Assembly: GCA_035443185.1 (NCBI GenBank)
Contig: DAORRV010000001.1
Span: forward strand, 42,191 to 106,190
Direction: 5' to 3'
DNA from: Ignavibacteria bacterium
Lineage (GTDB): Bacteria; Bacteroidota; Ignavibacteria; Tepidaquicellales; Tepidaquicellaceae
DNA: 64,000 bases
A model generated the notes under the pieces. The model did not search any database, had not been told where the DNA came from, and worked only from the letters and a program-made list of their open reading frames with translations. Shown piece by piece: positions 18,869 to 64,000 of the stretch. The first letter of the stretch is position 1. Every line of letters starts with the position of its first letter. Made by a program: the position numbers and the translations under genes.

Positions 18869-20800
18869 ATGAAAACAGTTATAATTTTATTAATGCTACA
18901 AATCTCGGTATTGACATTCGGTCAGTCTGAGAAGATCGGAGATGAACTTTATCTTTACTCCGATAAAAATTCATCACAGCCAAACTGTACCGCGGAAGAA
19001 ATTAAATTTGATCCTGCAATACATGAAAACATTTCAGGACCTTTAAATATGGGAGGACCTTCATATGACTGGCCATTAAAAGCAGCACTTAATGAAGGAT
19101 TAGTTATAGTAAATTATGTAGATGATCTTGCAGGTGGCAGTATAAAGGATTATAATGACAATGACTGGTCATATAACGGTCATAACGGAACTGACATTTG
19201 TCTGCATGATTTTCGTAACATGGACAGATTTTATGCTATTAAAGCTGCTGAATCAGGAGTGGTCATACAGACAGTAATGAATAATTTTGACAGAAATACC
19301 GGATGGAGTAATGTAGATCCTGCCAATAAAATACTTATAAAACATGACGACGGGAGCTATGCATATTATTATCATCTTATGAAAAAATCAGTAACTGTAA
19401 AACTCGGTGAGTATGTACAGAAAGGAAGAATAATTGGATATGTTGGAAGTTCCGGAGTTTCTACAGATGCACACCTACATTTCGAATCAGGATATTTTGT
19501 AAATGGAACTTGGAACAAAAGAGATCCCTGGCAGGGAGATTATAATCATCTGCCTTCACAATGGGCTGATCAGGAAGCATATGTAGGAAATACAGCTTTT
19601 AAATTACACGATATGGGTGTTTTTACTTCGAGTCTGATAGGAGGAGATATGGATAATATTCCTATCTCTTATTTTAAGGAAAGAATTTTTACTCCAAATA
19701 CAGTCAGCGGATATGAAGGCAGGATTGGTTTCTGGCTGCAGCTTCAGGGAAATAATACAGGAAAGCAGATAAGATATGAAATTAGAAGATCAGATGGTTC
19801 TTTATTTGATGATACTTATTTTTACCTTAATAGTCAGGCACAATTTGCATGGTCCTGGTGGACACCGACTTTTAATGTAGGAATAGGTACAACCGGTGAC
19901 TGGTATGTAAGAGTTCTATATGACAATGTAGAAAAGGGAAGATATTTTTTTGACGTGCAGCTTCTAACATCAAACCGTCCGAGAATGTATCCTGTTGCCG
20001 CTAAATGTTTCAGGAGATCTATATTCGTTCAGAGAGATACTCTCAGAGTAAGACCTGTAAGAGCAAACATGCAGTACCAGCTGGTGAATGCACCTCCAAA
20101 TGTTTCGCTGACCAATGATTCAATCTTAACCATATCAACATTTGACCAGCCATTCAGATCATATGATTTTAAAGTTATTGGAAGTATGGGCGGAAGTGCA
20201 AGTCTACGTGATACTATGCTTTATAAACTTATAGATACAACAAAGAATCATTCATCAGGAAACGGGATTGTTTCACTTGAATTGAAATCATATTTAGAAG
20301 GGAGATATAACGGTTCTAGTATGGAAGAAGATACTATAACGGTTTTGTTAAGATCTCCATTGTCTCCATATGCACTTGTTGATTATGATAAAGTATTAAC
20401 TCTTTCAAACGGAACATGCATTGCAAACTTCCCAAATGCATCAAGCGGTATTTATTATTACATATTGATCCGCCACAGGAATTCCATCGAGACATGGGCT
20501 AAGACAGTACAGCAATTCCAGCTTGGTTATCCTTTAAGTTATAATTTTACAACTTCAAAAACAAAAGCTTACGGAGATAATCTCAAATTAAAAGGAGGTG
20601 AATATTGTATTTATTCAGGAGACGTTAATCAGGACGGAGCAGTGGATGTAACTGACGTTAGCATGGTAGATAATGATATTTCAATATTTGTTCAGGGATA
20701 TGAAGTAACTGATCTTGATGGAGATAATTTTGTTGATGCTTCTGACCAGGCAATTGCTGATAATAATTCATTTAACTTTGTAGTAAAGATCAGACCTTAG
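18869..20800 (+). CDS. Secreted M23 family metallopeptidase with a C-terminal beta-sandwich-like module plus dockerin-like Ca-loop domain
   Basis: Signal peptide. 'HNGTDI' (HxxxD) and 'GSSGVSTDAHLHFE' (HxH) M23 motifs. The C-terminus 'GDVNQDGAVDVTDVSMVDND...DLDGDNFVDASDQAIADNN' contains two EF-hand-like dockerin loops. Confidence 0.8.
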   Translation: MKTVIILLMLQISVLTFGQSEKIGDELYLYSDKNSSQPNCTAEEIKFDPAIHENISGPLNMGGPSYDWPLKAALNEGLVIVNYVDDLAGGSIKDYNDNDWSYNGHNGTDICLHDFRNMDRFYAIKAAESGVVIQTVMNNFDRNTGWSNVDPANKILIKHDDGSYAYYYHLMKKSVTVKLGEYVQKGRIIGYVGSSGVSTDAHLHFESGYFVNGTWNKRDPWQGDYNHLPSQWADQEAYVGNTAFKLHDMGVFTSSLIGGDMDNIPISYFKERIFTPNTVSGYEGRIGFWLQLQGNNTGKQIRYEIRRSDGSLFDDTYFYLNSQAQFAWSWWTPTFNVGIGTTGDWYVRVLYDNVEKGRYFFDVQLLTSNRPRMYPVAAKCFRRSIFVQRDTLRVRPVRANMQYQLVNAPPNVSLTNDSILTISTFDQPFRSYDFKVIGSMGGSASLRDTMLYKLIDTTKNHSSGNGIVSLELKSYLEGRYNGSSMEEDTITVLLRSPLSPYALVDYDKVLTLSNGTCIANFPNASSGIYYYILIRHRNSIETWAKTVQQFQLGYPLSYNFTTSKTKAYGDNLKLKGGEYCIYSGDVNQDGAVDVTDVSMVDNDISIFVQGYEVTDLDGDNFVDASDQAIADNNSFNFVVKIRP

Positions 20801-36862: not shown

Positions 36863-37137
36863 AATGATCTTCTCCTTTTAATTAATTCCTGTGTAAAATA
36901 TTCAGACAGTACAGAAAAGTCAATTGGTAATATTCTGTGTTTGTGAAAATGAATTTAATTCATGATCCGAAGAATCCGATAAGCAAGTGATTTTGCGTGA
37001 ACGATTTAGATTAGTAAACTTTGATTTAAAATCGGCAGGTGTTATAAATTTATAATTTCATAATTAGATTTAAAATTATTAAAAGACCTACTGAATTTTT
37101 ATTTATATATTCCATGTAAGATTGATTAATTTATCGA

Positions 37138-38187: not shown

Positions 38188-38221
38188 CTGTAAACAATTT
38201 TTTTCAAATTAAAAAAAAATA

Positions 38222-38923
38222 ATGAAAATAAATACAAAAAAATCTCTAAAATCAACTTTAATGATGATCATTTGTTTGGTATCATTTATTAAGTTTTCCG
38301 GATGTTCGGAGGATGATATACTTATTCCTGTAGTTACATATTCAAATTTGAGCGTTTATCATGTGGATATGATTACTGGAAATTTAGATATCCAGATAAA
38401 CAATGTAGTGGCAGCATCAAATGTAGTCTATCTTGAAAGACTAAATTATCAGCAACTCTTACCGGGAAATAACAATCTGAAAATTCAAAACGCTTCCGGT
38501 ACAACATTAATAGATACAACATTTTTCCTTTCTGAAAATAATTACTATTCTGTTTTTATTTATGATGTCGGAGGTGTTGCAAAACCTCTTATTGTAACTG
38601 ACAATCTTACTAATCCGGGTACTACAAATTCATCTGTCAGATTTATAAATTTTGCACCCGGCGCCGGATCTCTTGCATTAGGTGGTACAAGTAAACCTTC
38701 TCCATGGTTTCCAAATGAAGCTTACGGAGTTCCTGCAAGTTTCAGACCCATCACTGGCGGTGTTTATAATCTATATATGAATGAAGCTCTTACACCGAAT
38801 ACATTAGCTACTCTTATCGATCAGACCTTGGCAGCGGGAAGGATCTATACTATTATAGGTAAAGGTATTGCAGGTGGTACAGGTAATCAGAATATAGGAA
38901 TAGTCGTTTACAACAATCAATAA
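38222..38923 (+). CDS. DUF4397-like lipoprotein
   Basis: Lipobox 'FSGC'. Two repeats of the pattern '(V/I)R(F/V)(I/V)N..P....L'. Confidence 0.5.
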   Translation: MKINTKKSLKSTLMMIICLVSFIKFSGCSEDDILIPVVTYSNLSVYHVDMITGNLDIQINNVVAASNVVYLERLNYQQLLPGNNNLKIQNASGTTLIDTTFFLSENNYYSVFIYDVGGVAKPLIVTDNLTNPGTTNSSVRFINFAPGAGSLALGGTSKPSPWFPNEAYGVPASFRPITGGVYNLYMNEALTPNTLATLIDQTLAAGRIYTIIGKGIAGGTGNQNIGIVVYNNQ

Positions 38924-38945
38924 TATAAAATAAATCATAAAAAAA

Positions 38946-38972
38946 AGTCCGCTAAATGCGGGCTTTTTTTTT
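38946..38972 (+). terminator. Rho-independent terminator
   Basis: AGTCCGC/GCGGGCT stem (38946-38952 / 38958-38964) with a 5-nt loop and a 9-T run. Confidence 0.75.
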
Positions 38973-38998
38973 ACAATGTAATTTCTTTGTGAAAGAAA

Positions 38999-39733
38999 AT
39001 GGAATGCAAAAACTGCGGCAATGATTTTACCGGTAAATTCTGTAATGAATGCGGTCAGAAGAATGTTGACGGCAGAATTACGATCCGGGAGATACTTCAT
39101 AATTTTATACATTCTTTTACTCATATTGACTCCGGTATTTTTTTTCTGATAAAAGAATTATTTATCCGCCCCGGGGCAGTAGTCAGAGAATATCTCAGCG
39201 GTAAAAGGAAAAAATATTTCAACCCATTCCAGTTTCTGATCATCGCAATTGCAATCGCTGCTTTTCTTGCAGTAAAATTCACTTTATTCGGTCCAAACAT
39301 AGATCCTGATACAATAGAAGCGTTAAATTCCCAGCAGAGATTCTGGTTACTGTTCAATAAATTTATTTACAGGAATTTTAACTTAATATTGTTTCTCAGC
39401 GTGCCGGTAGCTGCAGTTTATTCCAGATTAATATTCAGGAAGTCAGGTTATAACTATGCAGAGCATCTTGTATTCAATACTTTTTTAGCGGCTGAAAGAA
39501 CAGTTTTGTATATAATCTTAACTCCGCTGATTTACTTCACGAAATCGAACTGGACTATAGGTGTAGGAATTTATTATATATTATGGGTAATTTATTACGG
39601 ATATTCATATGTCAGTTTTTTTGGCGGGAATAAATTTATAACTATTTTAAAATATATCTGTGTGCTTTTATTGCTGATGCTGACAAGTCAGACCATTTCA
39701 ATGTCGGTGTTTTATTTTTTCTTTTACAAGTAA
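38999..39733 (+). CDS. DUF3667-like membrane protein with N-terminal zinc-ribbon
   Basis: 'CKNCGNDFTGKFCNECGQK' zinc ribbon, then 'RPGAVVREYLSGKRKKYFNPFQFL' and several TM helices. Confidence 0.6.
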   Translation: MECKNCGNDFTGKFCNECGQKNVDGRITIREILHNFIHSFTHIDSGIFFLIKELFIRPGAVVREYLSGKRKKYFNPFQFLIIAIAIAAFLAVKFTLFGPNIDPDTIEALNSQQRFWLLFNKFIYRNFNLILFLSVPVAAVYSRLIFRKSGYNYAEHLVFNTFLAAERTVLYIILTPLIYFTKSNWTIGVGIYYILWVIYYGYSYVSFFGGNKFITILKYICVLLLLMLTSQTISMSVFYFFFYK

Positions 39734-39739
39734 TCGGAT

Positions 39740-40990
39740 TTAGTTTTTTACAAAAATCTTTTGATTTTTAAATATTGATTTTTTTTCAAGCTCTTTTCTT
39801 TTATCAAATGCCAATCCCGGCCAATTTACAAGAATAAGCTGTGCAGCATTTCTGTCAGCGATTGCAAGATCGTCTATGTCAACAATAATATCACCGTTCA
39901 GATTTGTAACTGCATTTCCTAATGTATAATTGAACAGGTCATTATCAATCATAACAAGATCATCAGAATCAATTATCTGATCGTTATTCACATTCCCGCT
40001 GTAAATACAGCCCCGGCTTCCTTTCAATACCATGTTGCTGCCATAAGCCTGCGAAACTGAGGAAGTGAAGTCATAGAAATTATTTCCTTCTGCCAGTGTT
40101 ACTCCGCCGGATTTACTCCAGGTCTCAAGACCGTTTTTTGTTTTTACGACTATATAATAATTGGAGAACAAAGAAATGTTTTGAAAATCGAAGTTACCTG
40201 TTAGGTTAACTGAATCTATTATTGCAGATGCAGAATCTACAACTTGATAAGGAGAAGTGCTTTTTCTTAAATAAACAGTGGCAGTTTCTTTTTTAAAAAG
40301 TTTATCGTTTGAAACATTGTATAATCCTTCAATCGAAATTTTCAAATTAAGGTTTACATTTACAAAAACCGGATTCATATTTATAAAATGGTTTGAACAT
40401 CGTGTCATTTCTTTATTTAAACAGCCATTTGCGTCATACCAGTTGATCTTTGTTCTTGTTGCTGATAATGGTGATTCACAACTGTCTCTAAAAATAATAG
40501 GATTAGTATCAAGAGCTGATAAATTAATTGGAGTTGATGATTTTAAATTATATCTGCCGATCAGGATTGGGACACCTTGCTGCATGATTAAACCACCTCC
40601 GCATCCGGGTAATGAATTAGCAGCAGCTCTGAATTCATAATTCCCTGGAGAGTTTGAAGCAATTATTGTATTTGTATTCCTAGGTCTGAAACTTTCCGGT
40701 AGGTCTGAAACTGGAACACCGTTTGCAGTGTCAAGCATGAAAGATGAAGCCGATCCGAAACCAGCATAAAAAGTCCCAAGTGATTGAGGTCCTCTAAGAA
40801 AAAATGTCCATCCTGCTAATTGCATTACCGTGGCATCGGTATGAGTAAAAACCAGATCAAATTTTAACAGATAAGGAGAAACCAGATTAAAGTTTTTTGC
40901 TTCAAGAGTGTATTGCGGAATCTGAGCTGATGACTCATTTATAATTATCAACTGTGAAATTAATATTAAAATAAAAATTATCTTTTTCAT
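39740..40990 (-). CDS. Secreted paralog A1 (type A, 416 aa): unknown N-domain + beta-sandwich-like module + dockerin-like domain + basic tail
   Basis: Signal peptide. 'PQYTLEAKNF...QLAGWTFF...VSDLPESFRPRN...NSPGNYEFRAAANSLPGCG'. 'IEGLYN...LRKSTSPYQVVDS...YYIVVKTKNGLETWS'. 'GNVNNDQIIDSDD...NLNGDIIVDIDDLAIADRN'. 'WPG' followed by a K/R-rich tail. Confidence 0.85.
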   Translation of the reverse strand: MKKIIFILILISQLIIINESSAQIPQYTLEAKNFNLVSPYLLKFDLVFTHTDATVMQLAGWTFFLRGPQSLGTFYAGFGSASSFMLDTANGVPVSDLPESFRPRNTNTIIASNSPGNYEFRAAANSLPGCGGGLIMQQGVPILIGRYNLKSSTPINLSALDTNPIIFRDSCESPLSATRTKINWYDANGCLNKEMTRCSNHFINMNPVFVNVNLNLKISIEGLYNVSNDKLFKKETATVYLRKSTSPYQVVDSASAIIDSVNLTGNFDFQNISLFSNYYIVVKTKNGLETWSKSGGVTLAEGNNFYDFTSSVSQAYGSNMVLKGSRGCIYSGNVNNDQIIDSDDLVMIDNDLFNYTLGNAVTNLNGDIIVDIDDLAIADRNAAQLILVNWPGLAFDKRKELEKKSIFKNQKIFVKN

Positions 40991-41036
40991 AAATAGTTTG
41001 AAATTTATTGAACAATTAAATTTTCAAATATTGAAA

Positions 41037-42140
41037 TTAAGGTGTTATTACACCTGCAAACAGAAACACATTATTATCAGCTATAGCAAGATCATCAAGG
41101 TCAACAAATCTGTCACCATTCAGATCTGTAATAACATCTCCGCTTAAGAAATTTGTGCCGTCATTATATACTCTTGACATATCTGAAATATCTACAAATC
41201 CGGAGTTATCAATATCCCCGCTGTATAAACAATATTTGCTTCCTTTTAAAACCAAATTATTACCATACGCTTTTGAAGAGGCAACTGTGAAATCATAATT
41301 TAAAGTATTTCCGATTACTATATTCTCTCCGCCGGATCTGCTCCAGGTCTCGAGTGAATTTATATACTTCATCACAAGATAATACGATCCACCTTGAATA
41401 AAACGAAAAGTAAAATTACTTAACAATGTATTTGAGTCTAAAATAGAAATTGATGAATCTATAATCTGATAAGGGGAAACTGATTTTCTCAAAAACAATT
41501 TAATTGAATCTCTTTTAAGATGTTTATTCTGAATTGGTCTGTATAAGCCTTCTATAGCAACTTTGATTTCAAGTGAAGTTTGAATTCCGGATGTGTCAAT
41601 AAGGTAAGAAGCTCCCGAAGTTACATTCGTATTTACTGTTCCTACATAAGCGTAAATTTTCGTAAACGGATCCGGTGACTGTGTTCTCCATGCAAAGTTT
41701 AACGGAACATTCGCGAAAGATCCGGCAGTTGTCTGAATTTTCATTTTTGCAATCTTCGTTCCCGGACTTCCGTTGTTTGTCATAATAAAACCATTCCCCG
41801 CGCTTGGGAAAATATTTGCAGCAAGTCTTAGCTGACTTCCTGATACCTGAGGATTTCGCGGCCGCATATTGACAGGGAGATCAGAACTGTCAGAAGAATA
41901 TGTATAAGATAATGTTCCGCCATTTGCAATATCAGTATTAACATTAAAAAAATATTGTCCTCCGGAATATTCAAATACAGTCGGTGAATTTGTATGCTCC
42001 AATCGAATCTCAAATTCTAAAACATTCGGTGATGTAAATACAAAATTCAATGATTTAAGATTAAATGTTGGAGTTTGAGAAAACATAATTCCCGGCGAAA
42101 ACAGAATAATTATTATTATTGATTTGAAAAAATTTATCAT
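41037..42140 (-). CDS. Secreted paralog B1 (type B, 367 aa): related N-domain + beta-sandwich-like module + dockerin-like domain
   Basis: Signal peptide. 'FEYSGGQYFFNVN..IANGGTLSYTY...RPRNPQVSGSQLRLAAN'. 'IEGLYRP...LRKSVSPYQIIDS...YYLVMKYINSLETWS'. 'GDIDNSGFVDISD...DLNGDRFVDLDDLAIADNN'. Its ATG overlaps the A2 stop (ATGA). Confidence 0.85.
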   Translation of the reverse strand: MINFFKSIIIIILFSPGIMFSQTPTFNLKSLNFVFTSPNVLEFEIRLEHTNSPTVFEYSGGQYFFNVNTDIANGGTLSYTYSSDSSDLPVNMRPRNPQVSGSQLRLAANIFPSAGNGFIMTNNGSPGTKIAKMKIQTTAGSFANVPLNFAWRTQSPDPFTKIYAYVGTVNTNVTSGASYLIDTSGIQTSLEIKVAIEGLYRPIQNKHLKRDSIKLFLRKSVSPYQIIDSSISILDSNTLLSNFTFRFIQGGSYYLVMKYINSLETWSRSGGENIVIGNTLNYDFTVASSKAYGNNLVLKGSKYCLYSGDIDNSGFVDISDMSRVYNDGTNFLSGDVITDLNGDRFVDLDDLAIADNNVFLFAGVITP

Positions 42141-43372
42141 TTGAAATCTCCTGTAAATGTTTTGCTTTTTAATGAAATGTTTCTTTTATTTGTTGTCTGT
42201 CCCGGCCATTCTACTAAGATCAACTGTCCGGCATTCCTGTTTACAATTGCCATATCATCTATATCAACTATATTATCTCCGTTTAGATTTGTGATACTAT
42301 TTCCCAAGACATAATTATAAACGTCATTATCAATCATACTCAGATCATCAGTATCAATTATCTGATCGTTATTCACATTCCCGCTGTAAATACAATACCG
42401 GCTTCCGTTCAGTACCATATTATTACCAAATGCCTGAGATGCTGAAGTCGTGAAGTTGTAGGAGTTACCGCCGACTATTAATAATTCACCGCCCGACTTA
42501 CTCCATGTTTCTATAGTATTTCTGCTTTTTACCGCGATATAGTAATTTCCATTCAGATGATTCTCAAATATGAAATTTGCTGTTAAATTAACGGAATCAA
42601 TAAACGCTACTGAAGAATCTAATATCTGATAAGGTGTATTTACGCTTCGCAGAAAAGCTGTAACAGATTCCTTTCTGTTTAATGTATTATTTATTGGATT
42701 ATAAAGTCCTTCATTTGCCATAATTATATTAAGACTTATATTATTTTCCAATCCAGATAGATCTACTGAATGACTTGCGCATCTGGTCATTTCAACTCCT
42801 AGACAATGACTTAATATGTATGGATTTATCTTTGTTCTTGTAACTGAAAGAGGAGTATCACAACTGTCTCTAAAAGTAAAAGAGTTTTCATTTAAAACAC
42901 TAATGTCTATTATGGATGTAGATTTTAATTTATATCTGCCAATTAATGTAGGTACATTGACTGGTATAGATAATCCGTTTCCACATCCGGGGAGAGAGTT
43001 TGCAGCAATTCTGAATTCATAATTACCAGGTGAGTTTGAAGCAATCACAGTATTAGGATTTCTAGGTCTGAAAGATTCAGGTATATCTGAAACAGGAATT
43101 CCATTTATTGTGTCTAAAACAAAAGAAGAACTTGTTCCAAATCCGGGAAGAAAATTGCCTAAAGTCTGAGGTGCTTTTAAAAAAAACTGCCAGCCAGCTA
43201 ATTGCCATTGAATAAAATCCAAATTGGTAAAAACCAGATCAAACTTTAAAGTATGGGCATTTGTAAGTTCGAAATTTTTTGCTTCAAGTGTATATTGTGG
43301 CAATTGTGCATTAGAACTATTAGTTAAAACAAGCATACAAAATATTGAGAATAGAAGTAAATTTTTTTTCAT
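42137..43372 (-). CDS. Secreted paralog A2 (type A, 411 aa)
   Basis: Collinear with A1 and A3 along its full length. Shares a 42-nt identical DNA run with A1 (42353-42394 = 39968-40009). Confidence 0.85.
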   Translation of the reverse strand: MKKNLLLFSIFCMLVLTNSSNAQLPQYTLEAKNFELTNAHTLKFDLVFTNLDFIQWQLAGWQFFLKAPQTLGNFLPGFGTSSSFVLDTINGIPVSDIPESFRPRNPNTVIASNSPGNYEFRIAANSLPGCGNGLSIPVNVPTLIGRYKLKSTSIIDISVLNENSFTFRDSCDTPLSVTRTKINPYILSHCLGVEMTRCASHSVDLSGLENNISLNIIMANEGLYNPINNTLNRKESVTAFLRSVNTPYQILDSSVAFIDSVNLTANFIFENHLNGNYYIAVKSRNTIETWSKSGGELLIVGGNSYNFTTSASQAFGNNMVLNGSRYCIYSGNVNNDQIIDTDDLSMIDNDVYNYVLGNSITNLNGDNIVDIDDMAIVNRNAGQLILVEWPGQTTNKRNISLKSKTFTGDFK

Positions 43373-43403
43373 ATTTATTTAAAGTTTATAAAGTGTAAAT
43401 TAC

Positions 43404-44513
43404 TCAATCTCCATAAATCGGATTTCTAATTAATTTATTTCTATTATTATCAATGATAGACATATCTCTTCCCTCTACAACAAAATCACCATTAAAATCA
43501 GTTGGTCTAAATCCAGATGCATAAGTAAAAACATCATTATCTACATCACTTAAATCAGAAATATCAATTATATAATCCTGATTGACATCACCACTATAGA
43601 TACAATATAATGTTCCTCTAAGTGCTAAATTATTTCCATATGCTTTTGAAGCTGATGTTGTAAAATCATAATTATAAATATTACCATTCATCACCGTTTC
43701 ACCACCTGCTTTACTCCAAGTCTCAAGAGAATTATAATGTTTTACAACAAGATAGTAAGTTCCGTTGACAGCGTTTCTATATGTGAAGGTTGCACTTAAA
43801 GATAGTGAATCAATTATGTTTGTTGCTGAATCAACATAGTTATAAGGTGCAACTGATTTTGCAAGATATACCGTTACAGTATCTCTTCTATTATGAACGT
43901 GGAAGGCAGTTTTCAATAATCCGTCAATTGCTACTTTTAAATTGAAAGTTAAAATTATTCCAGATGAATCAATCGAGTGAACAGCATTTGAAGTTATGTT
44001 AGTATTAGTATTACCAACATATGCGTATATTTTTGTATAAGGATCAGGAAGATTATTTCTCCATTCAAAACTCAAGGGTGCATTAGTAAGAGATGGTGCA
44101 GTAGTAGTTAATTTCATACTGACAATTCTTGTACCGGGATTTCCGTTGTTAGTCATTATAAAGCCATTACCAGCTCCTGGAAACAAATTGCTTGCAAGTC
44201 TGAGTTGATTTCCGGATATCTGAGGATTTCTGGGTCTCATATGCTGAGGAAGTTCAGAAGTATCTCCGGCATAAGTATAAGATAATGTTCCTCCGTTCGC
44301 AATGAGTGGATTGAAATTAAAAAAGTACTGACCACCGGAATATTCAAAAGTTGTAGGCGCATTTGTATGTTCAATGAAAATATCAAACTGCAATACATTT
44401 GGAGCCGGATGTGAAAAATTTTTTGCTGTTAAATTATACAATGGTGCTTGTGAAAAAGAAACTACAGGTAATATTAAATACAAAAAAATAAATAATTTGG
44501 ATAAAATGTTCAT
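43404..44513 (-). CDS. Secreted paralog B2 (type B, 369 aa)
   Basis: Collinear with B1. Its ATG overlaps the A3 stop (ATGA at 44510-44513). Confidence 0.85.
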   Translation of the reverse strand: MNILSKLFIFLYLILPVVSFSQAPLYNLTAKNFSHPAPNVLQFDIFIEHTNAPTTFEYSGGQYFFNFNPLIANGGTLSYTYAGDTSELPQHMRPRNPQISGNQLRLASNLFPGAGNGFIMTNNGNPGTRIVSMKLTTTAPSLTNAPLSFEWRNNLPDPYTKIYAYVGNTNTNITSNAVHSIDSSGIILTFNLKVAIDGLLKTAFHVHNRRDTVTVYLAKSVAPYNYVDSATNIIDSLSLSATFTYRNAVNGTYYLVVKHYNSLETWSKAGGETVMNGNIYNYDFTTSASKAYGNNLALRGTLYCIYSGDVNQDYIIDISDLSDVDNDVFTYASGFRPTDFNGDFVVEGRDMSIIDNNRNKLIRNPIYGD

Positions 44514-45745
44514 TTGGTTCTCCTTGCAATTGTTTTATTATTTAATAATTTTTTTCTTTTTTGAAATGTCTGACCCGGCCATTTAACTAATACAAAGTTA
44601 CCGGCATTCTTATCAACAATTGCAAGATCATCAATATCTACAATATCGTCACCGTTAATATTAGTCAGCGAATTTCCTCCTGCATAATTATACAAATCGT
44701 TATCAAGCATTGTAAGATCATCTGTGTCTATAATATTGTCGTAGTTAAAATTCCCGCTGTATATACAATACTTGTCACCAACTAAAACCAGATTATTTCC
44801 ATAAGCTTTAGAAGCTGATATTGTAAAGTCGTAAAAATTTGTACCATTTTGAAAGTTTGTTCCGCTCTGTTCACTCCACGTTTCCAGACCATTTTTATTT
44901 TTTACTGATATGTAATATGTACCTGCTGGTCTGTTGTAAAATATATAATTCCCTGACAAAGTAGATGAATCAATTAATCCCTTTGAGGAATCTATTATTT
45001 GATAAGGTGAATTCACATTTCTTAAATAAGCAGTAACAGAATCTTTTCTGTTTAATCTATTAAAAACAGGATTATATAAACCTTCAATTGACAATTTTAA
45101 ATTTATCTGTATAAAAGGAAACACTCCTGAAATATCAACATTATGATTTGCACATCGCGTCATCTCTTTATTCAAACAATTATTTGCATCATACCAATTG
45201 ATCTTTGTTCTGGTTACCGATAGTGGCGATTCGCAACTGTCTCTGAATATTATTGGATTATTTAACAATACGTTTGGATTTATTATTGTGGAAGCTTTCA
45301 TGTTATATCTACCTATTAAAATAGGAATGTCTTTAGGAATTATTAACCCATTTCCGCAGCCTGGAAGAGAATTTGCAGCTAATCTGAATTCATAATTTCC
45401 AGGAGAATTTGCAGCGACAACTACATTTGATCCTCTTGGTCTAAAAGATTCAGGAAGGTCTGAAACCGGCACCCCGTTACTTGTATCAAGCATATATGCA
45501 GATGCTGATCCAAATCCCGCAGAAAAAACTGCTAACGTCTGGGGAACTCTGAAAAAGAACTGCCACCCCGCTAATTGTAAAGGTGTATCATCAGTTTTTG
45601 TAAATATTAGATCAAACTTCATTGTGTATTCGTCAGAAAGCACATAATTTTTTGCTTCCAGAGTATATTGCGGAATCTGTGATTTAAGCTGATTTGCAAA
45701 ACTAAGCAAAAAAAATAATGAGAAAAGTGGTATAATTTTTTTCAT
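44510..45745 (-). CDS. Secreted paralog A3 (type A, 411 aa), first gene of the array
   Basis: Collinear with A1 and A2. Signal peptide. The same four type-A-specific Cys residues. The same 'WPGQ' + basic tail. Confidence 0.85.
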   Translation of the reverse strand: MKKIIPLFSLFFLLSFANQLKSQIPQYTLEAKNYVLSDEYTMKFDLIFTKTDDTPLQLAGWQFFFRVPQTLAVFSAGFGSASAYMLDTSNGVPVSDLPESFRPRGSNVVVAANSPGNYEFRLAANSLPGCGNGLIIPKDIPILIGRYNMKASTIINPNVLLNNPIIFRDSCESPLSVTRTKINWYDANNCLNKEMTRCANHNVDISGVFPFIQINLKLSIEGLYNPVFNRLNRKDSVTAYLRNVNSPYQIIDSSKGLIDSSTLSGNYIFYNRPAGTYYISVKNKNGLETWSEQSGTNFQNGTNFYDFTISASKAYGNNLVLVGDKYCIYSGNFNYDNIIDTDDLTMLDNDLYNYAGGNSLTNINGDDIVDIDDLAIVDKNAGNFVLVKWPGQTFQKRKKLLNNKTIARRTK

Positions 45746-45945
45746 ATTTCCCTAATTAAAAATTTATTTGTACAAATGTAGAGTATAGCCTCTTTAAATT
45801 CAATTCACGTAAAAATAGACAGATTGGATTTTGATTTCCGGTTTCTAAAATAAAATTAATATCTCTCAAAAATTATCTTCTTATAAATTGATTTAAACTT
45901 CATATTTAATTAATTTGGCATACCTCAATTTCTTCAAAAATAATA

Positions 45946-46890
45946 ATGATGTCTGATCTGAAAATTTTTGCCGGTAGGTTTTCAAATAATCTCGGCAAGA
46001 AAATTGCTGCAAGCCTGAAGATGCCACTTGGCAAGTGTTCGATACGGACATTTTCTGATGGAGAGATCTGGGTAAAGTATAATGAAAATATCAGAGGCTC
46101 TGATGTTTTCATTGTTCAATCCACTATGCCTCCTGCAGATAATCTGATGGAACTTCTGATCATGATAGACGCTGCTAAAAGAGCATCAGCAAGAAGAGTC
46201 AATGCAGTCATTCCATATTTTGGATATGCGCGTCAGGACAGGAAGGATCAGCCGAGAGTATCTATAACAGCAAAGCTCGTTGCAAATCTCATTACTAAAG
46301 CCGGCGCAGACAGGGTGATCACAATGGATCTTCATGCTGCTCAGCTTCAGGGTTTTTTTGATATACCTGTGGACCATCTTTACGGATCTGCCGTCTTTAT
46401 GAATAAATTAAGAAAACTTAAAATACCAAATCTTGCAATCGTTTCTCCCGACGTTGGAGGGATCAAGATGGCCAGAGCTTATGCAAAAAGACTTCATGCG
46501 GATTTAATTGTTATTGATAAACGCAGACCAAAACCTAATGTCGCTGAAGTAATGGATATAATCGGAGATGTTGGAGGAAAGAATATTATTATTATAGATG
46601 ACCTTATTGATACCGGTGGAACTTTCGTTAATGCTGTAAATGCGCTGAAAGCAGAAGGAGCAAAAGATATTTATGGCGGATGTACTCATGCTGTATTCTC
46701 AGGAGAATCACTTGACCATATAAATAAATCTCCTCTGAAAAAACTTTACGTAGCTGATACTCTTCCAATGTCACATACATCAAAAAAGATAGAAGTAGTT
46801 TCCGTTGCGGAAATTTTTGGAAAATCCATTTATCGTACAAATAAAAATCAGTCGATCAGTTCACTTTTTGATGTCGATAAAGCTTTGTAA
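45946..46890 (+). CDS. prs: Ribose-phosphate pyrophosphokinase
   Basis: 'KIFAG..S..LG..IA..L...LG.....F.DGE', 'YARQDRK' and the PRPP-binding loop 'IIIIDDLIDTGGT'. Confidence 0.92.
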   Translation: MMSDLKIFAGRFSNNLGKKIAASLKMPLGKCSIRTFSDGEIWVKYNENIRGSDVFIVQSTMPPADNLMELLIMIDAAKRASARRVNAVIPYFGYARQDRKDQPRVSITAKLVANLITKAGADRVITMDLHAAQLQGFFDIPVDHLYGSAVFMNKLRKLKIPNLAIVSPDVGGIKMARAYAKRLHADLIVIDKRRPKPNVAEVMDIIGDVGGKNIIIIDDLIDTGGTFVNAVNALKAEGAKDIYGGCTHAVFSGESLDHINKSPLKKLYVADTLPMSHTSKKIEVVSVAEIFGKSIYRTNKNQSISSLFDVDKAL

Positions 46891-46974
46891 ATTGAATTGA
46901 AAGCAACATCTCTTATCCCTATTTTCCCTGAAATTAATTTAACCAAACTAATAAGTAAAACTTAAAAATATAAA

Positions 46975-48360
46975 ATGAGTGTAGATATAGTAATGCCGAA
47001 AATGGGCGAATCTATTATGGAAGGAACGATCTTAAAATGGCATAAAAAGCCGGGTGACAATGTAGATGTAGATGAAACTATTCTTGAGATTTCCACAGAC
47101 AAAGTCGATACGGAAGTCCCTTCTCCCGAAGCAGGAGTTGTTTCGGAGATTTTATTCAAGGAAGGAGATGTAGTAGAAGTCGGCAAAGTCATTGCCCGTC
47201 TGGGTTCTAACGGCGCAGCAACTTCCGAATCCGAAAAAGCCGAAACTAAATCTTCTGAAACCTCTGAAGTTAAAGAAGAAAAATCTGAACCTGTTCCGGA
47301 AATGAAGTCTGAAAAACCCGAAGCTGCATCTCCACAGACTACTGAAACACAAAAGATCATTACAGGCAGCGGCAGCAAATTTTATTCTCCGCTTGTTCTG
47401 AACATTGCTCAGGTAGAAGGTATTGGAATGTCAGAACTTGAAAACATTTCGGGTACAGGAATAGATGGCAGAGTTTCTAAAAAAGATATTCTTGCATATC
47501 TGAAAGACCGCACTTCAGCACCGGCTGCTGAGTCACCAAAGAAATCAGTGGAAATAAATTTAGATAATAAAGATACCAAAGAAACCAAGCCGGCTGCAGC
47601 TCCTGAAAGAAAGATTGAAGTACCTCAACCGAAAATTGATTATAACGAAGAAGGTCTGTCTGTAATGGAGTTTGATAATGTCAGACAAAAAATGGCTGAG
47701 CACATGATCAATTCTGTCAGGATATCTCCGCATGTGCAGGCAGTTGCAGAATGTGATCTCACAAATGTAGATAAGGTCAGAGCAAAAATGAAAAATGAAT
47801 TTGTTGAAAAAGAAGGATTTAATCTTACCTACATGCCTTTCATTTGTGAGGCTGTGATCAAAGCATTAAAAGATTTTCCGTTAATAAATTCGATCATAGA
47901 TGATTCTTCAGTTCCGTACAAAGCAATTACAAGAAATTCCATAAACCTCGGAATCGCCGTAGCAATGGATAACGGCGGACTGATAGTTCCTGTAATTCAT
48001 AACTCTGACGGAATGAATCTTATAGGTATTGCAAGAAGTCTGAACGATCTTGCCAAACGTGCGAGGATAAAAAAACTGACACTGAATGAAATTCAGGGCG
48101 GTACTTTTTCGATTACGAATTTTGGTGTGTTTGGAAATGATATCGGAATTCCGATCATCAATCAGCCTCAGGTTGCGATACTCGGACTCGGAGCAATTAA
48201 AAAAAGACCTGTAGTGGTGGAGACAGAAGAAGGTGATTTCATAGTTCCGAGAAAGACAATGTTCATAACACTTTCATTTGATCACAGACTTGTGGATGGT
48301 GCGCTCGGCGGAATGTTTGTAATGAAGATCGCACATTATCTGAATTCATATAAACTTTAA
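46975..48360 (+). CDS. 2-oxoacid dehydrogenase E2 component (dihydrolipoamide acyltransferase)
   Basis: Lipoyl domain 'EISTDKVDTEVPSP'. Ala/Pro/Glu/Ser linker. Peripheral-subunit-binding domain 'SPLVLNIAQVEGI...ISGTGIDGRVSKKDI'. Catalytic 'LSFDHRLVDGA'. Confidence 0.88.
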   Translation: MSVDIVMPKMGESIMEGTILKWHKKPGDNVDVDETILEISTDKVDTEVPSPEAGVVSEILFKEGDVVEVGKVIARLGSNGAATSESEKAETKSSETSEVKEEKSEPVPEMKSEKPEAASPQTTETQKIITGSGSKFYSPLVLNIAQVEGIGMSELENISGTGIDGRVSKKDILAYLKDRTSAPAAESPKKSVEINLDNKDTKETKPAAAPERKIEVPQPKIDYNEEGLSVMEFDNVRQKMAEHMINSVRISPHVQAVAECDLTNVDKVRAKMKNEFVEKEGFNLTYMPFICEAVIKALKDFPLINSIIDDSSVPYKAITRNSINLGIAVAMDNGGLIVPVIHNSDGMNLIGIARSLNDLAKRARIKKLTLNEIQGGTFSITNFGVFGNDIGIPIINQPQVAILGLGAIKKRPVVVETEEGDFIVPRKTMFITLSFDHRLVDGALGGMFVMKIAHYLNSYKL

Positions 48361-48382
48361 CAAAGAAAATTAAGTTAATCAA

Positions 48383-48412
48383 AAGGGAATAAAACTTTTA
48401 TTCCCTTTTCCT
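48383..48412 (+). terminator. Rho-independent terminator after the E2 gene
   Basis: The 'aagggaataaaa' / 'ttttattccctt' hairpin followed by 'ttcctt'. Confidence 0.6.
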
Positions 48413-48431
48413 TTATACATCAAATTTAATT

Positions 48432-61834: not shown

Positions 61835-64000
61835 ATGAAAAATCTGTTTTCAACTTCGATGGTGTTTTTTACATTAATCAGCAATTTGTTTTTATCAGGA
61901 AATGCTGATGCACAGATGTTCTGGAATAAAGCATCTGAATTTATTGCTTCAGATTCATCTCACGTTGCAGTTCCAGACAGTCCGTCACTGGACCTAACCG
62001 GAAATTTCACTTTAGAATGCTGGGTAAATCCTGATAGTTCAGTACATCCGTTCAGTCAGATACTTATTCAGAAAAGAACTCCTTCTACAAGCTCAACAGG
62101 ATATGCTTTATATCTGCAACAGGGAAAGGTGACTATTACGATAAATAATAATATCGGTCTGATCGGAAAAACTGTGATTCAAAATAATAAATGGACTCAT
62201 ATAGCAGGAAGATTTATAGTAGCTACCGGTACATTTTCAGTTTATATAAATGGCGTACTGGATACTTCAGTCGCTAAACCCGGAAATACTCCGGCAGTAA
62301 ATAATGATTCAGTGATAACCGGTATTGGCAGAGGAATAGGCGGAATATTCTCCGGAAAGATAGATAATATCAGGATCTGGAACAGAGGACTAACTGCTGC
62401 AGAAATTTTTATGTATCGTTATACTACTCTTGGAGTAAATACGGGAATATATAACGGACTGGTATTGTCACTTCCATTTCAAAAAGAAGAATCTACATCT
62501 CCGGTATTTTCTGTAAATGATTATTCAGGAGCGGGCAATAATGGCTTTGCAAGAAATCTGACTTCGTTTGATATGAGTAATGAACTTTCACAAATTGTTA
62601 CATACAATGAAAGTGCAGAGTTTGACGGAAACGATGACTATTTATCAGCATCATCAAATACGGCATTGTCACCTGTTCAATCAGTTACTTTAGAAGCTTG
62701 GATTTATCCCAAATCTGTTTCCAACTCTGTAATTATACATAAAGGATCTGATAACGGAGCAGTGACAAATTTCAGATTAGGAATTGAGAATAGAAAACTT
62801 TATGCAGGCATAAAACAGAATTTTAATTTTATTTCAAATGATACTATTGGTGTTAATAAATGGAGTCATGTTGCATTTACATATTCAGGAATTACAGGTA
62901 AGTACTGTTTTTATCTGAATGGAAAAATGATTATAGATAGTACTAACATCATTGGTCTGATCTCAAGCTCTTCAGATTCACTTTATATTGGCGGTTCGGT
63001 TTCACTTCCGGATTTTAATGGCTTCATAGACGAGGTAAGAATTACCGAAGATGAAAAAACAAATTCTGAAATTACAGAAAACATTTTCAGATCAGTGGAT
63101 AAATCCAATGAAAGTATTTATGATGATGTTGTATATAATCTCGACGGACTTAATCTTTCCAATACCGGACAGGGAACTAAACTTAACTTCAGAAACAACG
63201 CTGCATTTTCTCATCCAGCTGCCAATACTTTGAAACCTGTTTCACCATGTCTCAGATCAGGTGCAAATTATTTTCAGGGGTCATTTAATTTAAGTAAGAC
63301 TGATCTCAGGATTCCGTTTTCTGGAGACGCCGGAATATCTGAAGATGAAATTGAAATTTATGAAAATATACCGATCACTGACGTTAATGTTTTTGTAGCA
63401 ATGAACCATGAAAATATGAATAATATCAGAATATTATTAACTGCACCAAATAATCAGTATGCTTTGCTTTATAATGAAAGTTATAACGCAGGAGTTGATG
63501 AAAATCTCATAACTGTATTTGATGATCAGGGAGCTCTGCCTAATTCAAATACTTACACATCTTTTTCTCCTTCCATTCAGGGAAATGTAAATTTAAATTC
63601 CGCATTTACCGGGAATACAAAAGGCACATGGAAGCTCACGATATTTGATGACACAGGTACTGACACGGGCAGGCTTTATTGCTGGGGGATCAGGTTCAAT
63701 AATAAAACTGCTTCAGAAAATATTCTTGAAACAAGTTTACATATAGAAGGATTTTATAATGAAGCTGCAAATAATACAATTAGAGATACAATTACATATA
63801 ATCTTAGAAAATTTAATTCACCTTATAATATTATTGAATCCAAAAAATTCTATCTTCCTTTGAATAATCTGTCATATGTAAGTTTCAATAATGTTGTTGA
63901 AGCTGCACCTTATTATATTGAAGCTGTCCACAGAAATTCGATTGGAGTATGGAGTGCATCTGATGTTACATTCAGTCCATTTTCACATCTTGCGACTCAT
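61835..64000 (+). CDS. Secreted protein, 3'-truncated by the window edge: 2 x LamG (Laminin_G_3) + proprotein-convertase P-domain + beta-sandwich-like module (not in the supplied ORF track)
   Basis: I translated it manually from the ATG at 61835: 722 codons with no stop up to nt 64000. Signal peptide 'MKNLFSTSMVFFTLISNLFLSGNADA'. LamG patterns 'LTGNFTLECWVNP...NKWTHIAG...YINGVLD...FSGKIDNIRIWNRGLTAAEI' and 'VTLEAWIYPK...NKWSHVAFTY...YLNGKMI...FNGFIDEVRI'. P-domain 'ITDVNVFVAMNHENMNNIRILLTAPNNQYALL...GTWKLTIFDDTGTDTGRLYCWGIRF'. Confidence 0.75.
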   Translation, partial: MKNLFSTSMVFFTLISNLFLSGNADAQMFWNKASEFIASDSSHVAVPDSPSLDLTGNFTLECWVNPDSSVHPFSQILIQKRTPSTSSTGYALYLQQGKVTITINNNIGLIGKTVIQNNKWTHIAGRFIVATGTFSVYINGVLDTSVAKPGNTPAVNNDSVITGIGRGIGGIFSGKIDNIRIWNRGLTAAEIFMYRYTTLGVNTGIYNGLVLSLPFQKEESTSPVFSVNDYSGAGNNGFARNLTSFDMSNELSQIVTYNESAEFDGNDDYLSASSNTALSPVQSVTLEAWIYPKSVSNSVIIHKGSDNGAVTNFRLGIENRKLYAGIKQNFNFISNDTIGVNKWSHVAFTYSGITGKYCFYLNGKMIIDSTNIIGLISSSSDSLYIGGSVSLPDFNGFIDEVRITEDEKTNSEITENIFRSVDKSNESIYDDVVYNLDGLNLSNTGQGTKLNFRNNAAFSHPAANTLKPVSPCLRSGANYFQGSFNLSKTDLRIPFSGDAGISEDEIEIYENIPITDVNVFVAMNHENMNNIRILLTAPNNQYALLYNESYNAGVDENLITVFDDQGALPNSNTYTSFSPSIQGNVNLNSAFTGNTKGTWKLTIFDDTGTDTGRLYCWGIRFNNKTASENILETSLHIEGFYNEAANNTIRDTITYNLRKFNSPYNIIESKKFYLPLNNLSYVSFNNVVEAAPYYIEAVHRNSIGVWSASDVTFSPFSHLATH

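Follow-up and report, generated by a model that had tools for sequence, protein, structure and literature searches.

Organization of the five-gene array

The window, a stretch of 64,000 nucleotides from an uncultured sludge bacterium (Ignavibacteria), carries an array of related genes for secreted proteins of two types, A and B. The ORF listing of the window confirmed the claim of an earlier note that these are five consecutive minus-strand genes in the order A-B-A-B-A, namely A3 (44510..45745; 411 aa), B2 (43404..44513; 369 aa), A2 (42137..43372; 411 aa), B1 (41037..42140; 367 aa), and A1 (39740..40990; 416 aa), the last gene of the array, which has no downstream B. Over their full length, the A proteins are 61-62% identical to each other and 37-40% identical to the B proteins. 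The array promoter is presumed to lie in the 200-bp intergenic region that A3 shares with the divergent prs gene (45746..45945, minus strand); TACATTTG is found there at 45773-45780, 28 nt before the start codon (ATG) of A3.

The ATGA stop/start overlaps claimed for both A-to-B junctions could be read directly in the minus strand, as 'ACC AAA TGA'/'ATG AAC' for A3-B2 (44510..44513) and 'TTC AAA TGA'/'ATG ATA' for A2-B1 (42137..42140), and the B-to-A spacers are 31 and 46 nt, as described. AGGAG, the Shine-Dalgarno sequence for B2, sits in the final codons of the basic-helix region of A3. Across the array and related loci in other genomes, ATGA was present at 5 of 6 distinct A-to-B junctions versus none of 16 other junctions, and A-to-B adjacency with the 4-nt overlap persists in relatives as little as about 50% identical; in one locus (L004), the B gene coupled to an A gene bears three cohesins. 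Judging from the sequence, the A3-B2 and A2-B1 overlaps represent translational coupling, which would probably supply A and B in equal amounts and as a heteromeric pair. The proposed strict A-B alternation with the pair as its unit holds within the window but not in relatives, whose arrays read A-A-A-A-B, A-B-A-A-B, and A-B(3 cohesins)-A-A-A, so that only the single coupled A-B pair is a conserved unit.

The 42-nt run said to be identical between A1 (39968..40009) and A2 (42353..42394, both minus strand) is an exact match at the first Ca-loop, CIYSGNVNNDQIID. It is the sole exact shared run of at least 20 nt among the five array genes, which are about 65% identical in nucleotides outside it. 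At this identity, the probability of such an exact run is about 1e-8 per position, so chance does not account for it, and the tract is likely a short gene-conversion tract.

Domain architecture of the array proteins

The full-length AF2 model of A3 (pLDDT 91.5) begins with an N-terminal hydrophobic helix, within a signal peptide of residues 1-22. It is followed by a cohesin-like type-A N-domain with four Cys (45122..45679, residues 23-208; β-sandwich strands across 27-203), an Ig-like β-sandwich X-module (44762..45121, residues 209-328; strands 211-328) that aligns with the X-module of CipA, and a dockerin with two Ca-loop/helix repeats and a 'WP' end (44573..44761, residues 329-391; helices at 341-352 and 371-382), which is supported by alignment, AF2, and tail-profile search. 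The protein ends in a type-A-specific, Lys/Arg-rich basic helix (44513..44572, residues 392-411), predicted at lower pLDDT over 394-409. A2 and A1 have the same cohesin-X-dockerin plan with a basic tail. B2 consists of a signal peptide, a type-B cohesin-like domain (22-186), an X-module, and a dockerin, and B1 of a signal peptide (1-21), a cohesin-like domain (41583-42077, residues 22-186), an X-module (41232-41582, residues about 187-303), and a dockerin (41040-41231, residues about 304-367), all on the minus strand. Each array protein is therefore modelled as a signal peptide, a cohesin-like β-sandwich, an Ig-like X-module, and a two-loop dockerin.

Foldseek searches with the A3 model placed CipA CohI9-X-DocII of Clostridium thermocellum (4FL4_C/L/I, 3KCP_A) in the four best PDB matches, with E-values of 1.4e-8 to 3e-7 over about 381 aligned columns, and gave type II cohesins (4U3S_B, 3FNK, 3GHP, 5LXV) as single-domain matches. 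When the B1 N-domain was modelled alone (pLDDT 92.6, pTM 0.89), cohesins made up about 30 of the 31 top matches (prob 1.00, TM 0.45-0.57), with modest E-values (about 1e-4) and TM-scores of only about 0.5. XDoc-binding type II cohesins topped this list, non-cellulosomal cohesins (2VO8, 2JH2, 2XDH) were among the matches, and β-jelly-rolls such as CBM3 ranked lower. The Pfam Cohesin profile matched none of about 150 N-domain family members scanned, and a sequence-profile search of the PDB with the N-domain gave no match. The suspicion of a cohesin/Ig-like β-sandwich was thus borne out by AF2 and Foldseek, and the structure search gave cohesins rather than an unrelated characterised family. These results indicate that the array N-domain is cohesin-like in its predicted fold, and that its family, of 931 clusters, is an unannotated, Pfam-invisible cohesin-like family.

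The X-module of A3 carries the motif 'IEGLYN...YYI.VK..N.LETWS' and a weak Pfam match to Y_Y_Y that falls below threshold. The two EF-hand-like loops previously recognized in each tail have D, N, S, or E at positions 1, 3, 5, 9, and 12 in all ten Ca-loops. Taken singly, the five array proteins gave no passing match to Pfam Dockerin_1 (best E = 0.65). The tail-family profile matched 25 PDB sequences, each one a dockerin, with both loops covered and 5LXV_B as the best match; Dockerin_1 exceeded its gathering score in the homologous tails P0110 (30.8 bits) and P0055 (25.9 bits) and reached E<=0.01 in 14 of 76 tail-family members. The loops do score as dockerins in these searches, and the assignment is supported by sequence profiles as well as by fold. 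The conserved middle module forms an X-dockerin dyad with the dockerin, as its X-module, and the tail consequently resembles a type II XDoc and not the bare type I dockerin put forward earlier.

Types A and B differ in both modules. Alignment of the five proteins confirmed that four Cys are conserved in type A only, where they co-vary in pairs, fitting two disulfides, and that 'WPG' with a Lys/Arg-rich tail is limited to type A, type B stopping directly after the second loop. Dockerin identities were 0.61 for A-A, 0.42 for A-E, 0.48 for B-E, and 0.50 for E-E (E, enzyme tails), which would place the tails in two dockerin subtypes, with A distinct and B falling together with the enzyme tails.

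Candidate cargo, putative anchors, and export

At least 445 matches to the X-dockerin tail were found in reference genomes. In the loci examined, the tail forms the extreme C-terminus of at least 133 distinct non-cohesin Ignavibacteria proteins, including arylsulfotransferases, peptidases, nucleases, and β-propellers; no glycoside hydrolases were found among the tail-bearing Ignavibacteria proteins. Of about 170 tails, 106 have 0 residues beyond the end of the HMM; the terminal Pro is near-invariant. Two candidate cargo proteins lie on the plus strand of the window: a 643-aa Peptidase_M23 protein with the tail at its end (18869..20800; tail HMM E 6.5e-57, Peptidase_M23 E 5.7e-16, Dockerin_1 21.6 bits versus a GA of 22.9), and a protein with two Laminin_G_3 domains and a P_proprotein domain (61835..64000) whose gene runs past the window end, the X-module starting just before it. 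Since these two further X-dockerin-tailed proteins are in the window and the five array proteins themselves bear cohesins, the statement that no scaffoldin-type genes are nearby was not quite right; a cohesin protein anchored by a T9SS C-terminal sorting domain (CTD) was not found within the window. Such fusions occur in 28 of 75 N-domain family representatives, and the top 150 N-domain clusters include 47 with Coh+CTD, about 50 with Coh+XDoc, and about 24 with 2-4 cohesin copies. At locus L014, the gene immediately upstream of an A·B-A-A-B array encodes an A-type Coh-PKD-CTD protein, and Coh-CTD anchors are interleaved with XDoc cargo at two other loci (L018 and L006).

A Sec signal peptide is present in each of the five A/B proteins, and the Gln that stands invariantly at +1 agrees with the Q-rule; for Ignavibacterium album, the Q-value is 77% (PMC5837995). 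The T9SS CTD (Por_Secre_tail) was absent from the five array proteins and from the XDoc cargo scanned. 'Extracellular', as used in the earlier note, was overstated, since no T9SS sorting domain accompanies the Sec signal peptides of the proteins. The absence of the CTD from array proteins and cargo weighs against tethering to outer-surface anchors of a diderm cell. Arylsulfotransferases, PQQ-type dehydrogenases, and M23 peptidases are classically periplasmic types, and such cargo likewise weighs against the surface-anchor scheme. The array proteins would reside at the surface or in the periplasm.

Comparison with known cohesin-dockerin systems

CipA (ScaA) CohI9-X-DocII of C. thermocellum (3KCP, 4FL4, 2B59) has the same order of cohesin, Ig-like X-module, and two-F-hand dockerin, and in that organism it is through the binding of XDoc to cohesin that complexes are held on the cell surface (Brás et al. 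2016, PMC5141474). Compared to CipA, the cohesin part of the array proteins has no detectable sequence similarity, the X-module is larger (about 118 versus about 98 aa), and the tri-module is the entire protein instead of the end of a 9-cohesin scaffoldin. The array system also has no CBM, its cargo are not CAZymes, its host is a diderm FCB bacterium, and anchors of its family use the T9SS CTD, not SLH or sortase. Like the array proteins, ScaC of Ruminococcus flavefaciens is a small secreted protein, reportedly built of one cohesin and a single C-terminal dockerin, and its cohesin (5LXV) was among the top Foldseek matches of both the A3 and B1 models. ScaC switches or extends dockerin specificity, the role proposed for A and B, but it lacks an X-module, comes from a cellulolytic Firmicute, and does not occur in translationally coupled tandem paralog pairs.

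Cohesin and dockerin are used beyond cellulose, as here, in Archaeoglobus fulgidus (2XDH) and in toxin/glycosidase complexes of Clostridium perfringens (2VO8, 2JH2, 2OZN/2JNK), and these non-cellulosomal structures, of a class said to have been surveyed in 2009, appear among the tail-profile and N-domain matches. A. fulgidus proteins also join cohesin and dockerin in one chain. Both organisms have few such proteins per genome with sequence-recognisable modules, whereas Ignavibacteria show a lineage-wide expansion with a Pfam-invisible cohesin. In Ca. Stygibacter (Cloacimonadota), a cellulosome-like complex with a T9SS-type CTD-anchored scaffoldin has been predicted from MAGs (Williams et al. 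2021, PMC8542988). Both hosts are FCB diderms with dockerin-tagged enzymes that include peptidases and a CTD-bearing cohesin protein, both systems being inferred from MAGs only. Ca. Stygibacter has a single giant 3,755-aa scaffoldin, InterPro-recognisable cohesins, CBM2/3, and GH18/GH57 cargo (PMC8542988), in contrast to the mostly mono- to tri-valent cohesin proteins of Ignavibacteria, where each dockerin is obligatorily preceded by an X-module, the Coh-X-Doc adaptors come as coupled A-B pairs, and GH cargo was not found. The description of the system as undescribed holds for the family and lineage, but cohesin-dockerin pairs outside the cellulosome are already established, and a T9SS-CTD scaffoldin has been inferred elsewhere (PMC8542988).

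Proposed assembly system

Our favoured reading, which we hold to be probable, is that the five genes encode monovalent adaptor-scaffoldin-like proteins of an Ignavibacteria-wide, non-cellulosomal cohesin-dockerin network, whose binding, partner specificity, and location we infer. Each array protein has both a socket and a plug, and therefore probably joins other array proteins, surface anchors, and plug-tagged enzymes. The network would comprise three classes: cohesin-like modules fused to the T9SS CTD as cell-surface anchors, Coh-X-Doc proteins, including the five array proteins, as adaptors or self-assembling units, and enzymes and binding proteins with a terminal X-Doc tail as cargo. Cohesin-like modules would receive X-Doc tails in a Ca-dependent manner, so tethering cargo and adaptors to anchored cohesins; Coh-X-Doc proteins may chain head-to-tail, and A and B may form a heteromeric pair, with, for example, the A cohesin holding the B dockerin.

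A less probable, though credible, explanation is that the N-domain is a generic β-sandwich of the CBM-like or Ig-like kind that binds ligands or acts as an adhesin module, and not a dockerin receptor, and that the five proteins are surface or matrix adhesins whose X-Doc tail is a Ca-stabilised module binding, for example, LPS, exopolysaccharide, or peptidoglycan. The N-domain has no sequence-level link to cohesins and its TM-scores are only about 0.5; CBM3c (2XFG_B), a GH9-CBM, and the adhesin 'CLIPPER' domain (9IFR) are also in the B1 N-domain list, and pilins in the A3 full-length list; and many bacteria reportedly have dockerins without recognisable cohesins. However, about 30 Foldseek places are almost purely cohesins with the XDoc-binding type II first, the tri-modular order as a whole fits Coh-X-Doc, the N-domain and XDoc tail co-occur in genomes, loci, and polypeptides, and the N-domain is scaffoldin-like in its tandem repeats and CTD anchoring.

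We regard as rather improbable that cohesin-XDoc contacts form in the periplasm, with CTD-cohesin proteins carrying folded XDoc partners through the T9SS, or that the network is a periplasmic enzyme-organising scaffold. This would agree with the Sec signal peptides and missing Por_Secre_tail of XDoc and A/B proteins, with the frequent CTD fusion of the cohesin-like family, with cargo including the classically periplasmic ASST, GSDH, and M23, and with anchors and cargo being encoded together. These observations, however, fit other export routes (T2SS, OMVs, lysis) equally, and we know of no precedent for T9SS hitch-hiking, nor was any found. More improbable still is that the X-Doc tail serves, in place of the T9SS CTD, as a novel C-terminal signal for sorting or secretion, with A and B as abundant substrates or components of such a pathway and not as scaffolds. 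While the tail is always extreme C-terminal with its near-invariant Pro, and the N-domain carries either tail or CTD as if these were alternatives, the module at the end is a dockerin of the EF-hand type and not a β-sandwich CTD, cellulosomal enzymes also typically carry C-terminal dockerins, and no dedicated transporter genes are conserved beside the arrays in related loci. On the favoured reading, the adaptor-scaffoldin network would be a Gram-negative lineage's counterpart of the cellulosome kit, put to uses other than cellulose.

Gene organization of the array

The earlier note had described five consecutive minus-strand genes of two related types, and the ORF listing returned them in that order: A3 (44510-45745), B2 (43404-44513), A2 (42137-43372), B1 (41037-42140), and A1 (39740-40990). 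Reading the reverse complement confirmed an ATGA stop/start overlap at both A-to-B junctions, and the spacers at the B-to-A junctions measured 31 and 46 nt. Protein alignment bore out the division into two types, with full-length identities of 61-62% within type A and 37-40% between A and B. Four cysteines and a terminal 'WPG' plus Lys/Arg tail were restricted to type A, as had been claimed, and two Asp/Asn-rich loops were present in each of the 5 proteins. The 42-nt run reported as shared by A1 (39968-40009) and A2 (42353-42394) is an exact identity. It is also the sole exact match of at least 20 nt between any two array genes, the remainder being about 65% identical, and its simplest reading is a short gene-conversion tract across the first Ca-loop.

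Ahead of A3, at a distance of 28 nt from its start codon, lies the sequence TACATTTG (45773-45780, minus strand), which resembles the Bacteroidota-type -7 promoter element, TAnnTTTG. No obvious motif comparable to it was seen in the 31- and 46-nt B-to-A spacers, which is consistent with one transcript for the array. Scans for sigma-70 promoters and intrinsic terminators gave output at chance level in this AT-rich FCB genome. Each coupled B gene has its Shine-Dalgarno-like sequence inside the last codons of the basic A tail before it (…GCAAGGAGAACCAAATGA and …ACAGGAGATTTCAAATGA; 44513-44530 and 42140-42157, minus strand), so that the sequence of the A tail is constrained in part by the initiation of B translation.

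The N-terminal domains have a cohesin-like fold

Nothing scored above threshold for the five proteins in Pfam or NCBIfam, where weak Y_Y_Y, EF-hand, and Dockerin_1 hints were the only signals, and the Pfam Cohesin model (PF00963) had no match in these five proteins, in 76 family members, or in 75 representatives. An N-domain profile found no PDB sequence at E<=10, and a phmmer comparison of A3 with PDB sequences gave marginal matches only (surface-anchored protein repeats, TCR), which were discarded.

We modeled A3 with AlphaFold2 using a 76-sequence alignment (mean pLDDT 91.5). The model contains an N-terminal helix corresponding to the signal peptide (residues 5-17), 2 β-sandwiches (27-203 and 211-328), 2 helices each preceded by an Asp/Asn loop (341-352 and 371-382), and a basic helix of lower confidence (394-409). 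The four best Foldseek matches in the PDB were all Clostridium thermocellum CipA CohesinI9-X-module-DockerinII (4FL4_C/L/I and 3KCP_A; E 1.4e-8 to 3e-7, prob 1.0, approximately 381 aligned columns), with a low global TM that reflects differing inter-domain angles. They were followed by type II cohesins as single-domain matches.

As an independent check of the cohesin assignment, the B1 N-domain was modeled alone (pLDDT 92.6, pTM 0.89). Approximately 30 of its top 31 Foldseek matches in the PDB were cohesins (prob 1.00, TM 0.45-0.57), in agreement with the suspicion, first raised by eye, that these domains are cohesin-like. Type II cohesins that bind X-dockerins occupied the top ranks (2B59_A, 4FL4_B, 4U3S_A, 5K39, 5G5D, and 5M0Y), and the matches spanned cohesin types I, II, and III as well as the non-cellulosomal cohesins of C. 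perfringens (2VO8 and 2JH2) and A. fulgidus (2XDH). A TM of about 0.5 means a fold that is the same as that of cohesins, a nine-stranded β-jelly-roll sandwich, but divergent. [quoted passage not shown] The cohesin assignment is one of fold alone, while that of the dockerin also has sequence support.

The C-terminal tail is an X-module plus dockerin

All 10 Ca-loops across the five proteins carry D/N (S/E) ligands at positions 1, 3, 5, 9, and 12, as in 'NVNNDQIIDSDD' and 'NLNGDIIVDIDD' of A1. The window proteins missed the Dockerin_1 gathering threshold (GA), the best being B2 (E = 0.65; 10.7 bits against a GA of 22.9), and A1, A2, A3, and B1 had no Dockerin_1 match at E<=1. Homologous tails do exceed it (P0110, 30.8 bits; P0055, 25.9 bits), and Dockerin_1 reached E<=0.01 in 14 of 76 family members. 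A profile built from 26 tails matched 25 PDB sequences, every one a dockerin with both loops covered, which upheld the identification of the Asp/Asn loops; the best match was 5LXV_B (E 1.4e-4).

The tail had been likened to a type I dockerin. The two-loop dockerin stood, but the conserved "middle module" before it proved to be the X-module of an X-dockerin dyad, as in type II. Such dyads have been described for type II dockerins (PMC5141474). In the A3 model, the β-sandwich at residues 211-328 sits directly before the dockerin and aligns with the X-module of CipA, and across 170 unique tails the X-module and dockerin move as a single block of about 180 residues. A conserved Pro is almost always the final residue of the protein ('...TP/RP/KP'; '...GVITP' in B1), and in type A it is followed by Gly and a Lys/Arg-rich helix of 20-25 residues. 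The terminal Pro could serve as protection from proteases or as a recognition signal.

The fold and tail evidence together lead us to read each protein as a signal peptide followed by a cohesin-like module, an X-module, and a dockerin, an architecture (Coh-X-Doc) that we hold with high confidence.

Dockerin subtypes, cysteines, and export

Type-B dockerins fall inside the cloud of tails found on enzymes ('GDvNqDG...DNN'), with a mean identity to these of 0.48 compared to 0.50 among the enzyme tails themselves. Type-A dockerins form a separate and tighter subtype ('GNvNnDqIID...TNLNGDnIVDiDDlaIvDrN...ewP'; identity 0.61 among themselves and 0.42 to enzyme tails). Among 57 unique type-A cohesin domains, the RDSC/TRC cysteine pair is near-universal, and the PGCG/NxC pair is both present in 18, both absent in 35, and mismatched in 4. 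At the level of sequence, this co-variation suggests 2 disulfides, one core and one optional.

In the alignment, the hydrophobic N-terminus is followed in every one of the five proteins by an invariant Gln (Q23). A Q-rule has been described in FCB bacteria, with a Q-value of 77% in Ignavibacterium album (PMC5837995), and the Gln at +1 matches this rule, supporting the predicted Sec/SPI export. Lipoprotein status was rejected since the signal-peptide end has no Cys. By Pfam, the T9SS C-terminal sorting domain (CTD; Por_Secre_tail, PF18962) is absent from all five proteins, and A and B were accordingly rejected as T9SS cargo.

Arrays in related genomes

Comparison of positions 34649-50180 with a related locus (L003) revealed a conserved synteny block around the array, with an S8 peptidase, a 2-oxoacid dehydrogenase E2, and prs on one flank and DUF3667, DUF4397, glycosyltransferase 9, and a BNR/PSII_BNR protein with a T9SS tail on the other. 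The slot holds A-B-A-B-A in the window and A-A-A-A-B in the related genome, and this varying content between conserved flanks points to a chromosomal slot that is itself stable but a hot spot for the turnover of paralogs. The syntenic chromosomal position of the array, from prs to DUF3667/DUF4397/GT9, led us to reject an origin from a phage or mobile element.

Other relatives carry A-B-A-A-B (L014) and A-B(three cohesins)-A-A-A (L004, identical to L015). The strict alternation described in the earlier note is thus not conserved among relatives, but its A-to-B coupling is: an ATGA overlap was found at 5 of 6 distinct A-to-B junctions against 0 of 16 A-to-A, B-to-A, and B-to-B junctions. The L004 type-B gene (L004:1391-3508) encodes a 705-residue protein with three tandem cohesin-like domains and one X-Doc tail, a small multivalent scaffoldin of the same family, and is itself ATGA-coupled to an upstream type-A gene.

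Candidate anchors were also present. In the closest relative, an 805-residue protein (L014:37-2454) combines an A-type cohesin-like domain, PKD, about 430 other residues, and Por_Secre_tail, and its gene directly precedes the Coh-X-Doc array, in the same orientation. The window array has no counterpart of this gene upstream, where a divergent prs is found. P0026 is another such cohesin-CTD paralog with Por_Secre_tail, and in L018 and L006 cohesin-CTD genes are interleaved with genes for X-Doc-tailed cargo (an S8 peptidase and a CHRD protein). All 3 classes (anchor, adaptor, and cargo) occur in at least 2 genomes within the small flanks sampled. The cohesin-CTD protein P0047 was not linked to the window genome, as the accession prefixes differ (HRI/HRJ versus HQY/HRA).

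Family census and cargo

Homologs of A3 fall into 3 groups. The full-length relatives all come from Ignavibacteria. In a second group only the N-half is shared, and it is joined to a T9SS sorting domain or to PKD. In the third only the C-half is shared, and it forms the extreme C-terminus of arylsulfotransferases, PQQ-type dehydrogenases, LVIVD, BNR, EEP, and other proteins. An N-domain homolog search returned only proteins of at most 330 residues, an apparent length bias, and an exhaustive HMMER search was used in its place. It yielded 931 clusters at 50% identity with E<=1e-3, of which 559 reached E<=1e-10. We counted domains with HMMs from clean alignments after filtering overlapping matches. 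The best 150 of the 931 clusters comprised 47 with cohesin plus CTD, about 50 with cohesin plus X-Doc, and about 24 with 2-4 cohesin copies, multi-cohesin proteins including the L004 B protein (3 copies), P0226 (3 plus CTD), and P0162 (4). Pfam assigned Por_Secre_tail to 28 and Dockerin_1 to 11 of 75 representatives.

For the pattern-based genome scan, a type-B alignment replaced an N-domain alignment that was too diverse. With one genome per GTDB species, at least 445 tail matches were confirmed, and the best 80 were all from Ignavibacteria-type MAGs, often with at least 6 per genome. The fetched loci contained 133 distinct ORFs joining another domain to an X-Doc tail, which mostly formed the protein end. 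In 60 of these cargo proteins, Pfam identified ASST, BNR/sortilin propellers, LVIVD, FG-GAP, M14, M12B, GSDH, Endonuclease_1, PETase-like, and LamG domains.

Two further tails were seen within the window. A 643-residue Peptidase_M23 protein (peptidoglycan DD-metalloendopeptidase; 18869-20800, plus strand) ends in an X-dockerin (tail HMM E 6.5e-57; Dockerin_1 21.6 bits, just below GA), a "cellulosome-type" plug on a peptidoglycan hydrolase. A large secreted protein with 2 Laminin_G_3 domains and P_proprotein (61835-64000, plus strand) runs past the window end, its X-module beginning just before it; a protein of homologous architecture at L005:3560-5155 has the full tail.

No glycoside hydrolase appeared among the 25 families listed of 39 matched in the 60 cargo proteins, no CBM was detected in the 75 representatives, and on these grounds a classical cellulosome was rejected. 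The classes found in the census (anchoring, adaptor, and cargo) are those that make up a scaffoldin system. The exact A3 protein (P0001) occurs in 37 assembly-collection blocks, mostly from wastewater, bioreactor, and activated-sludge metagenomes, suggesting that the organism is widespread and sufficiently abundant to be reached by metaproteomics or metatranscriptomics.

Discussion

The array is real, and its interpretation in the earlier note was essentially right. In the mechanism we propose, X-Doc tails would insert into cohesin-like modules in a Ca-dependent manner, cohesins fused to a CTD would supply T9SS-dependent anchoring at the surface, and A1-A3 and B1-B2 would work as monovalent adaptors or as units able to self-chain. 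We consider it somewhat probable that the 2 modules bind one another in this way; co-occurrence and co-localization with X-Doc genes lend indirect support. Two cohesin and 2 dockerin subtypes imply at least 2 specificities. The coupled translation of A and B suggests a heteromer that contains them in equal amounts. In the pairing that we favor as a best guess, the A cohesin would receive the dockerin of B, which is of the enzyme type, and the A-type dockerin would be bound by another cohesin, one that is anchored or of type B.

Because the CTD is missing from A, B, and cargo, and several of the cargo types are classically found in the periplasm, assembly in the periplasm or joint export as a complex could be envisaged. 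A more elaborate version, which we regard as a long shot, would have X-Doc proteins, among them enzyme types that normally reside in the periplasm and lack a T9SS signal, dock on CTD-cohesins in the periplasm and cross the T9SS in folded, complexed form; once at the surface, A and B would chain head-to-tail, the A dockerin into the B cohesin and vice versa, forming an extensible non-cellulosomal "exo-enzyme coat." If true, this would represent a new principle of T9SS cargo recruitment together with a self-polymerizing cohesin-dockerin lattice.

The system belongs to a known cohesin-dockerin kind and is not categorically new. The closest structure is the Coh-X-DocII portion of C. thermocellum CipA. 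The closest functional analogs are monovalent adaptor scaffoldins such as Ruminococcus flavefaciens ScaC, whose cohesin (5LXV) is among the top matches for both the A3 and B1 models and whose partner dockerin (5LXV_B) tops the tail-profile matches. In concept, the closest precedents are non-cellulosomal cohesin-dockerin pairs, reportedly described by Peer et al. in 2009, and the CTD-anchored cohesin scaffoldin with dockerin-tagged enzymes proposed from Cloacimonadota MAGs (PMC8542988). In a search of the literature, we found no cohesin-dockerin system described for Ignavibacteria, and the Melioribacter genome paper states explicitly that the cellulases there have no dockerin or scaffoldin domains (PMC3534657). 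Compared to known systems, the present one differs in its sequence-cryptic cohesin family, the obligatory X-dockerin tail on non-CAZyme cargo, the predicted T9SS-anchored cohesins, and the translationally coupled Coh-X-Doc paralog pairs. A 2026 preprint on Ruminococcus reports that structure-based searches recover divergent cohesins that sequence methods miss (10.64898/2026.02.05.704116), the same methodological point as that made by the cryptic Ignavibacteria cohesins. With about 930 cohesin-like clusters at 50% identity unseen by Pfam and NCBIfam, cohesin-dockerin systems of Gram-negative FCB bacteria are probably under-counted.

Coming from a Gram-negative host and comprising at least 2 dockerin subtypes, orthogonal cohesin/X-Doc pairs could be useful parts for display on surfaces and for the design of enzyme complexes. 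Cohesins joined to a T9SS sorting domain raise the question of the route by which dockerin-tagged proteins with no T9SS signal reach the surface. Together, these results extend the cohesin-dockerin "plug-and-socket" principle to the Ignavibacteria, an abundant and mostly uncultured group of wastewater and sediment, and to cargo unrelated to cellulose, namely sulfotransferases, peptidases, nucleases, dehydrogenases, and β-propellers.
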